Source: a virus. Taken from it: DNA of 64,000 nucleotides. The DNA lies in IMG/VR virus record IMGVR_UViG_3300050119_000104, positions 32,001-96,000 of that record. The stretch is one strand, 5' to 3'. This document shows, one piece after another, positions 1 to 339 of the stretch (position 1 is its first letter; each line of letters begins with the position of its first letter). Both the position numbers and the translations under genes were made by a program. The notes under the pieces were generated by a model. It was not told the DNA's origin, ran no database searches, and worked only from the letters and a program-made list of their open reading frames with translations.

Positions 1-37
1 TCCAACAAAGCATGCTTATCCGGTTGACGCCCAATGC

Positions 38-66
38 TTGACAGCCACCTGGAATTTTGCTTTTCT
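38..66 (+). promoter_or_regulatory. sigma70-like promoter inside the cassette
   Basis: TTGACA (38-43), 17-nt spacer, then TTTTCT preceded by GC. Same spacing as the other promoters in the window. Confidence 0.5.
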
Positions 67-72
67 CCGTTC

Positions 73-240
73 CGACAATCGCCTCCGATTGATTGGGGGT
101 ATCTAAAGACCATGTTTCCGTCGTCTGTTCGCGCCGAAAGGTAGAACGGCGATGAATAAGGTCCATTTCGGTGGATCGCGCAGAGTGCTCTGCGTCCTGT
201 AGAGGGAGAGCCGGGTTCGTGTCGTCCATTGGGCGTCAAC
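73..240 (+). ncRNA. stand-alone TnpB omega/reRNA-like RNA (boundaries approximate)
   Basis: GCCGAAAGGT (133-142), GAATAAGG (154-161) and hairpin GCGCAGAGTGCTCTGCGT (178-195) align with the 3' end of tnpB at 61298-61413 (-). GAAA and UUCG tetraloop hairpins present. Confidence 0.7.
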
Positions 241-339
241 CGGATAAGCACGCAACAAAGGACGCTAGGGAAAGCTGCGTCGTCCCGAGAGGTTCGCAGC
301 AAAGCCGATCTCACTGGACGCGCGAGCTATTGGGGGCAA

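Follow-up and report, generated by a model that had tools for sequence, protein, structure and literature searches.

The first bases of a 64,000-nucleotide stretch of phage DNA raise the question of how the guide-RNA (omegaRNA) scaffold of a TnpB nuclease can lie, without any gene of its own, between the terminal inverted repeats of a DDE-type transposon. The stretch, hereafter the window, covers positions 32001-96000 of IMGVR_UViG_3300050119_000104, a virus record of 117,459 bp, and contains three elements of interest: A and C, which we classify as miniature inverted-repeat transposable elements (MITEs), and B, a cassette that carries a tnpB gene. Positions refer either to the window or, as genome coordinates, to the parent record, which also bears the label L029; L145, L148 and the like are labels of viral contigs, whereas L032 denotes a part of this same record and L332 a sequence that includes MITE C. 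An earlier, sequence-only reading of the window had proposed a family of non-autonomous DDE-type cassettes that carry TnpB and its omegaRNA apart from the Y1 transposase, a proposal now supported by the ends, an autonomous partner, the flanking duplications, an empty site and the cargo. The arrangement is real and recently mobile. In the reading that we prefer, with a probability of roughly 0.8, A is an IS1595-type MITE with an omegaRNA scaffold as its cargo, the right inverted repeat doubles as the end of this scaffold, and the guide is taken from the flank.

Shared ends, flanking duplications and an empty site

MITE A is bounded by two 26-bp arms, CATGCTTATCCGGTTGACGCCCAATG on the left and CATTGGGCGTCAACCGGATAAGCACG on the right, which match in inverted orientation at 25 of 26 positions, and the exact 8-bp duplication noticed by the sequence-only reading is indeed present, with CAACAAAG found at 3-10 and again at 253-260. 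The 15-mer GCTTATCCGGTTGAC occurs at five sites in the window (14, 61230 and 63817 on the plus strand, 235 and 62345 on the minus strand), compared with a mean of 0.12 in shuffled windows, none of which reached a count of five in 100 shuffles. Over the whole record, the same motif was found 28 times at up to two mismatches, and a reversed-pattern control gave no match. The outer 18 bp are common to A, B, C and a larger element at genome 8172-10421 described below.

The three elements of the window had been said to share their left end. Their positions and ends hold, but B is inverted: its plus strand starts with CGTG and finishes with CATG, so that the CATG end becomes common to all three only after reverse complementation. 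The inner arms do differ between A and B, as had also been claimed, the arms of B being 25 bp long with ACCCACA/TGTGGGT as their inner part and a CATG end at 62362. This difference turned out to be no more than a subfamily-specific inner part of a 25-40-bp inverted repeat that varies in its inner portion across the whole family.

MITE C is clipped by the end of the window, and the prediction that its right inverted repeat would be followed by AAGAGACC could be read directly in the parent contig. The element ends at genome 96054 (equivalent to window position 64054) and is followed by AAGAGACC, the same eight bases that stand 5' of it. BLAST and motif maps revealed eight intact MITE copies of ~235-255 bp in this genome, in addition to truncated or diverged ones. 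The copy at genome 29656-29897 matches MITE A at 100% identity and seven further ones match it at 92-99%, and exact 8-bp duplications flank five of the eight intact copies (CAACAAAG, CACTGGAG, GAAGGCTT, AAGAGACC and AAACATAA).

Among peat, permafrost and soil metagenomes, the phage stretch is present in 18 DNA runs, and the search for empty sites that had been suggested for this family yielded an exact one for MITE C in a soil run (X17). There, a single contig with a depth of 3.7 joins position 3805 of L332 to position 4055, skipping 249 bases with 8 ambiguous letters. These 249 bases correspond to the 241 bp of MITE C plus one copy of its duplication, which is the precise empty site expected for this copy, the only one to which the evidence applies.

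An IS1595 transposase in the same genome

The statement that no DDE transposase lies within the window was correct, and one is encoded in the same contig ~22.7 kb before the window start (genome 8212-9255, minus strand). It is a 347-aa protein that matches Pfam DDE_Tnp_IS1595 (1.3e-34) and carries Zn_ribbon_IS1595 at its N terminus. The gene lies in the autonomous partner that the sequence-only reading had suggested looking for, a 2.25-kb element (genome 8172-10421) with the same ends, CATG at both tips, an 8-bp duplication (ATCGGGAT) and two passenger open reading frames (ORFs) of 124 and 181 aa without a Pfam match. The attribution to IS1595 has thus been put to the test by the Pfam match and by the presence of these ends around homologous transposases. 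Elements of the IS1595 family generate 8-bp duplications and occasionally carry passenger genes.

The family extends well beyond this phage, as more than 100 viral contigs were retrieved by the terminal motif. Exact 8-bp duplications flank 50 of the 66 distinct elements bounded by inverted copies in other viral contigs, and the target consensus of these 50 duplicated sites is symmetric, with T at -2 in 29/50 and A at +2 in 27/50. Homologues of the 347-aa protein, at 56-95% identity, are encoded at about 30 other viral loci that have these ends, and many loci in metagenome-assembled genomes show the same arrangement: contigs binned to Hyphomicrobiales and other Alphaproteobacteria have transposases 83-89% identical within the same ends. 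More distant 1.05-kb insertion sequences from Bryobacterales, Terriglobia and other groups share 40% identity, ..TGCTTAT(A/C)CGGTTG.. ends and 8-bp duplications. Among the loci examined, the transposase and tnpB were never found inside one element.

These data bear on a different origin of the repeats, namely, that the elements are Y1-driven IS200/IS605 insertions next to TTGAC in a pre-existing palindrome, whose arms would then be target rather than transposon. A Y1 transposase gene does lie in the window (15306-15716), and TTGAC does occur within the repeat. That gene, however, adjoins, back to back, a tnpB with canonical ends, which lacks inverted repeats, TTGAC varies in the repeats of related cassettes (TTGTC, TTTAG, TTGAT), and the same ends surround IS1595 transposase genes in dozens of contigs. 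Furthermore, neither 8-bp duplications nor an empty site lacking the element and one duplication copy are products of Y1 transposition, and no empty palindrome was found: in viral contigs, the A-type inner arm CCGGTTGACGCCCAATG appears as one solo end (L097) and chance matches. The sequence-only reading had named this scenario among those that would refute it; with 25-26-bp inverted repeats in A, B and C, and 8-bp duplications of varied sequence at A and C, which set them apart from IS200/IS605 elements with their subterminal hairpins and insertion 3' of a fixed 4-5-nt site, we regard it as highly improbable. A role for TTGAC of the left repeat as a transposon-adjacent motif (TAM) was likewise considered and dropped, the motif not being conserved in related cassettes; the TTGAC upstream of the canonical tnpB lies within the tnpA-tnpB intergenic region.

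In the phage gene that the autonomous element interrupts, the repeats furnish a stop at one side and, at the opposite side, an ATG (MFKPDKH..). Three positions distinguish the two repeats from each other (TTGAC versus TTTGA), as in the relatives L333-L336. The right flank of B (window 61218-61226) starts with AATCCCGAT, which contains the reverse complement of ATCGGGAT (L029:8164-8171), a match that could be due to chance or to a shared target.

An omegaRNA scaffold that ends in the right inverted repeat

Over their final ~105 bases, 23 cassettes and MITEs can be aligned well, and this segment contains a P1 hairpin with a GUGC loop, a 3-bp P2 hairpin and a GCCGG segment able to pair with CCGG of the repeat. 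In this alignment, 98.6% of the cells in the scaffold helices are paired, and the covariation score reached 0.412 compared with 0.115 in shuffles, a level attained by none of 500. Double changes were found in 4/5 pairs of P1 and 2/3 pairs of P2. A covariance model built for the scaffold (R1) detected 14 strong modules in the genome, 3 with tnpB and 11 gene-less, as well as the omegaRNA of the canonical tnpB, and a gene-less MITE relative was found in another viral contig (L145).

A link between the RNA and the transposon end comes from a pseudoknot. At 56 distinct loci, the core of the P1 loop was compared with the four bases that precede the last base of the right end. With IS1595-type right ends, all four bases of loop and tip pair in 22 of 23 loci, through eight combinations that include GTGC/GCAC, its full swap GCAC/GTGC, the double changes GCGC/GCGC and GCGT/ACGC, and GTGT/ACAC. 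Canonical relatives are paired in 27/33 (GACA/TGTC, AACG/CGTT, GACG/CGTC), and this level of pairing was reached by none of 2000 permutations. Elements that bear an omegaRNA nearly always have CACG as their right tip, compared with mostly CATG at left tips and at ends family-wide, an asymmetry that would follow from the right tip being the pseudoknot strand. At the tnpB loci of L261, L290 and L301, CCGGATAG is kept, the tips are GTGCG, ACGCG or ACACG, and the hairpin loops have changed to match; judging from these changes, their right ends look like sequences that evolve as RNA and have drifted from the CATG tip of the transposase.

The position of the guide can be proposed by analogy. In the ISDra2 structure, the pseudoknot occupies -5 to -3, with a single base before the guide (PMC10097598), and the same spacing would make the guide start here at the first base outside the right tip. 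Among canonical relatives, conservation ends one or two bases past the pseudoknot strand. The guide should therefore, by this analogy, be the flanking DNA directly outside the right end. The coordinates of these features are collected in Table 1.

Table 1. Elements, repeats, genes and RNA modules of the window
Position	Strand	Feature	Evidence
3-10		Left duplication copy of MITE A, CAACAAAG	Sequence
11-252	+	MITE A, 242 bp, non-autonomous, IS1595-type; no ORF, cargo omegaRNA scaffold	Ends, duplication, covariance model
11-36	+	Left terminal inverted repeat of A, CATG tip	Sequence
148-252	+	omegaRNA module of A: P1, P2, GCCGG/CCGG pairing, GUGC loop/GCAC tip pseudoknot	R1, 71.6 bits, E 3e-19
227-252	+	Right terminal inverted repeat of A, CACG tip; also 3' end of omegaRNA scaffold	Sequence, covariation
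253-260		Right duplication copy of A, CAACAAAG; predicted first 8 guide bases	Sequence; guide position by inference
14186-15716		Canonical IS200/IS605 element, no inverted repeats	Ends, Pfam
14186-14271	-	Canonical omegaRNA, ending ...GAAGACGTTAAT	Covariance model
14199-15302	-	Canonical tnpB, 59% identical to that of B, back to back with Y1 tnpA	Tree
15306-15716	+	Y1 tnpA	PF01797, 4.2e-42
61227-62362	-	tnpB cassette B, 1,136 bp, same ends, no flanking duplication	Sequence
61227-61337	-	omegaRNA module of B; overlaps both the right repeat (61227-61251) and the 3' end of tnpB	R1, 93.8 bits
61268-62323	-	tnpB of B, 351 aa	Pfam OrfB_IS605 6.6e-13, Cas12f1-like_TNB 5.2e-21
62338-62362	-	Left inverted repeat of B, CATG tip on the minus strand	Sequence
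63806-63813		Left duplication copy of MITE C, AAGAGACC	Sequence
63814-64000	+	MITE C, clipped at window end; full copy 241 bp, genome 95814-96054	Parent contig

tnpB cassettes and their relatives

Three tnpB cassettes with the same ends are present in the genome: one at 15708-16846, cassette B, and one that runs from 116344 to the contig end and is 100% identical to B. Residues D173, E289 and D326/D328 of the TnpB of B, together with C296/C299/C318/C321 of a four-Cys finger, are invariant in six homologues, and the acidic residues among them presumably form the catalytic triad. Copies of cassette B that are identical or 96% identical occupy three sites, and at every one of them the element is bounded exactly by its tips.

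A tree of 130 TnpB sequences, with SH-aLRT (Shimodaira-Hasegawa-like approximate likelihood ratio test) support, placed the IS1595-ended proteins in one clade, which gathers all 12 TnpBs with both ends and 17 of the 21 with the right end only. This clade (support of 90, and 97 for an inner group of 31 rows) contains no canonical forms and is sister to a clade with canonical ends, in which the canonical tnpB of the window (14199-15302) is placed. The tree suggests that TnpB and IS1595 ends came together in a single ancient capture and diversified afterwards, rather than by sporadic accident.

The cassette at 15708-16846 is itself the site of a nested insertion, in which a MITE copy (L029:15472-15711) flanked by the duplication GAAGGCTT sits within the left tip, which reads AAG in place of CAT. 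The last cassette is cut short at genome 117459, where the contig stops 20 bases before the left tip of this second copy of B (L032:1344-2459, genome 116344-117459). This end is an assembly break at a repeat, and the record is incomplete there despite a completeness estimate of 100%.

The stop codon of the tnpB of B overlaps an outward ATG (gcATGAcc; window 61227-61271, minus strand) that reads in frame through the right repeat (MTQDKEVVGVNRIST) into the flanking 198-aa gene. Upstream of the same tnpB, a small ORF crosses the left repeat and its TGA stop overlaps the tnpB ATG (62320-62472, minus strand). The outward frame is open for at least 38 codons into the flank in 14 of 24 cassettes, the two remaining frames being as open in 3 and 8, and it may represent a design that preserves expression.

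A 44-bp relic lies between two phage genes at window 10866-10909, with GGAGGGCCGCATGACCCAAGATAAAG... followed by a degenerate repeat. The possibility that a guide is fixed on the repeat, or that it targets 10875-10909, was rejected, as the similarity starts within the tnpB 3' end (GGAGGGCCGCATGA...) and runs into the degenerate repeat. Its sequence is best read as the remnant of the right end of a B-type cassette rather than as a target.

Missing duplications and the limits of the RNA evidence

Several results weigh against the reading that we prefer, and they fall into two groups. The first group concerns mobility. Three of the eight intact MITE copies of this genome have no flanking duplication, and only one of ~12 independent complete tnpB cassettes has one; B, the second cassette (15708-16846) and a 96%-identical copy in L148 all lack it. 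The reading also presumes that the 347-aa transposase mobilises the copies in trans. The single cassette lineage with an 8-bp duplication is L254/L174/L255 (TCTGATAT), and the cassettes devoid of one are B, L029:15708-16846, L148, L175, L188, L190, L256, L267, L276, L277, L278 and L289. At duplication-less elements, the left flank has T at -2 in 13/14 (10/11 cassettes and 3/3 MITEs), compared with A at +2 of the right flank in 4/13 (3/10 cassettes and 1/3 MITEs). The left target signature is thus kept and the right one is not, as though the junction on the guide side had been replaced.

Such a pattern would fit an alternative in which the tnpB cassettes, including B, are not or no longer moved by the IS1595 transposase and only the gene-less MITEs are true DDE passengers. 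The right repeat would then persist as part of the guide RNA, and the spread of the cassettes would be due to recombination, to one-ended or intramolecular events, or to repair triggered by TnpB. The contrast between 11 of ~12 independent cassettes without a duplication and 50 of 66 elements with one family-wide speaks for this view, as do the asymmetric flanks and about ten tnpB loci where the right end is kept and the left is absent, a state expected if RNA function holds the right end. On the other hand, near-identical cassette copies at three or more different sites begin and end precisely with the two tips, both ends are present in 12 distinct cassettes across the clade, left junctions bear the target signature of the transposase, and the lineage L254/L174/L255 has a perfect 8-bp duplication. 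We therefore consider this alternative unlikely, and the shared ends of B, together with exact tip-to-tip boundaries at several sites, suggest that B too was mobilised by a DDE transposase.

The lost duplications may be due to adjacent deletion or one-ended events, to selection on the outward reading frame or to nuclease-related turnover. Two further ideas failed: no consistent offset repeat was found that would indicate a duplication displaced past a ~16-nt guide, and the flanks of two duplication-less MITE copies are incompatible with an exchange mediated by inversion. The search for an empty site of B met only homologues of the downstream 198-aa gene that are 42-63% identical with variable N termini, and no contig joint in the metagenome runs fits the boundaries of B (a joint of 1304 to 2688 has a 28-letter side and mismatches the element).

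The second group concerns the RNA. The P3 pairing of GCCGG with CCGG shows no double changes in the 23-sequence alignment, and no Rfam family was matched at gathering thresholds over the whole window, nor anything above chance level at E <=10 on 1-300 and 61150-61600. A promoter scan of window 1-400 gave no sigma-70-type promoter. Contigs from RNA libraries (X19, X20) cover parts of tnpB and the MITE without showing transcription, ends or strand. Upstream of the duplications, no 5-base motif that could serve as TAM stands out beyond the R-T-N preference of the transposase, so that cleavage of empty sites has no support in the sequences and any nuclease target is put forward conditionally.

A further alternative is that the MITE RNA does not work as a TnpB guide. 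It would then be either the decaying remnant of a deleted cassette or a molecule with another role, as a decoy or regulator, in titrating TnpB or silencing genes in the flanks. The lack of a detected promoter and of an evident TAM would agree with it, as would the 5' half of the MITE, which is not alignable with the 3' coding region of tnpB. Decay is hard to reconcile with helices and pseudoknot that are intact in 11/11 copies, or with copies that are 92-100% identical and recently mobile. Moreover, an old copy of 72% identity (genome 6528-6790) and L145 keep the structure through compensatory changes, and gene-less elements with trans-acting omegaRNAs are known for IS605 (PMC10055086). Overall, a MITE RNA with no guide function appears quite unlikely to us, and we retain the reading of A as an IS1595-type MITE with a guide scaffold for cargo.

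Proposed mechanism

In the model that follows from this reading, an IS1595-family cut-and-paste transposon would have colonised this 117-kb peat phage, where its ~240-bp MITE now stands in about a dozen copies. The 2.25-kb autonomous copy, in the same genome and outside the window, would supply the transposase in trans. This enzyme is expected to recognise the common outer ~18 bp of the 25-26-bp inverted ends, to cut at the tips and to insert the element with an 8-bp stagger at a weakly palindromic target, R-T-N / RWWYRWWY / N-A-Y. The MITE would bring the scaffold only, without a gene, and the sister cassette B would bring tnpB and the same scaffold within the same ends.

Once inserted, the element would use its right repeat to close the scaffold at the 3' end. 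The CCGG of this repeat could pair with the upstream GCCGG, and the GCAC of ...AAGCACG, just before the last base, pairs with the P1 loop, GUGC, in the pseudoknot. If the RNA is produced and loaded in trans by TnpB, its guide would consist of the ~16 flanking bases counted from the right tip, namely, the duplicated 8 and the next ones, and each DDE insertion would thereby write a new guide. The likeliest targets would be the same loci where they are uninterrupted, in the genomes of sibling or competing phages, and their cleavage could lead to retention or homing of the element.

A bolder version, which we offer as a tentative possibility, is that the 14 modules form a dispersed guide set programmed by DDE insertion, with a few TnpBs cutting the uninterrupted alleles of sibling or rival phages in trans for homing or exclusion. 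The CACG tip would then be selected both for the pseudoknot and for the avoidance of self-targeting, and the systematic loss of duplications on the guide side of tnpB cassettes would reflect nuclease-dependent turnover of the flank that encodes the guide.

Relation to known systems

Associations of this general kind were published in 2023, and DDE-associated or solo TnpBs with inverted repeats, as well as gene-less omegaRNA elements, are already known. New here are IS1595 as the partner, a gene-less guide module of the DDE type and the demonstrated double use of a repeat. The main text of Altae-Tran et al. 2023 (PMC10691335) describes inverted terminal repeats in six TnpB branches associated with DDE transposases (DDE-1 to DDE-6), together with solo TnpBs that have these ends and rely on a transposase encoded elsewhere. 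As in the branches described there, tnpB lies here between inverted repeats common to DDE-transposase elements, with its 3' end near the transposon end and a guide that would be drawn from the flank. The partner differs, however, in that the main text of that study names IS630 and not IS1595. Unlike DDE-1 to DDE-6, the present elements are carried by a phage, have not been seen to combine transposase and tnpB in one element, and have a right repeat that is the pseudoknot strand of the scaffold, as shown by covariation. A 2026 review (PMC13565253) lists ISL2, IS630 and IS1031 as DDE partners, leaves IS1595 unnamed and discusses the rarity of such associations.

For the gene-less modules, the closest parallel is found in palindrome-associated transposable elements (PATEs), the PATE-like gene-less IS200/IS605 derivatives of Meers et al. 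2023 (PMC10055086), which encode omegaRNAs used in trans. PATEs and our MITEs are both short, multi-copy and non-autonomous, have no ORF and carry an omegaRNA scaffold that needs TnpB from elsewhere. PATEs, however, have IS605 end hairpins and no duplication and are moved by Y1, in contrast to the 26-bp inverted repeats, 8-bp duplications and presumed DDE-driven mobility of the present family. To judge from its sequence, the MITE would thus work like a PATE without being one, its ends being IS1595 inverted repeats.

The TnpB of ISDra2 (PMC10097598) has the same Pfam domains and RuvC nuclease, a scaffold that overlaps the tnpB 3' end and a pseudoknot formed by bases just 5' of the guide with one spacer base. 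It belongs to another TnpB clade, its scaffold ends in an IS605 right end and not in a DDE inverted repeat, and its TAM is the Y1 target site, whereas no TAM is readable from the flanks here. With IS1595 insertion sequences, the autonomous element shares DDE_Tnp_IS1595 with its N-terminal Zn ribbon, the motif ..GCTTATCCGGTTG.., 8-bp duplications and passenger ORFs. Unlike other IS1595 insertion sequences and MITEs, this family carries an RNA-guided nuclease or its scaffold as passenger and has one repeat remodelled for RNA function. Fanzor1 (Bao and Jurka 2013, PMC3627910) offers another case of a TnpB-family nuclease as passenger of cut-and-paste transposons with terminal inverted repeats and target-site duplications, in that instance with eukaryotic or giant-virus hosts, other transposase superfamilies and longer proteins.

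TnpB, the ancestor of Cas12, is known for retaining transposons of Y1 transposases and serine recombinases after scarless excision. DDE cut-and-paste leaves a break anyway, so the benefit that TnpB gains or gives by riding on a DDE element is an open question (PMC13565253). The phage described here, which unites a transposase, three tnpB cassettes, eleven gene-less guide modules and a canonical IS605 relative in one genome, provides a compact natural system in which to approach it. One DNA sequence serves as both transposase substrate and RNA pseudoknot, with evidence of recent movement, and the small (351-aa) TnpB with a proposed scaffold-guide boundary comes with a family of natural scaffold variants.

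Other features of the phage

The host of the phage is probably a hyphomicrobial alphaproteobacterium. Three tRNA genes lie at window 50870-51716 (Rfam tRNA, 48-72 bits).

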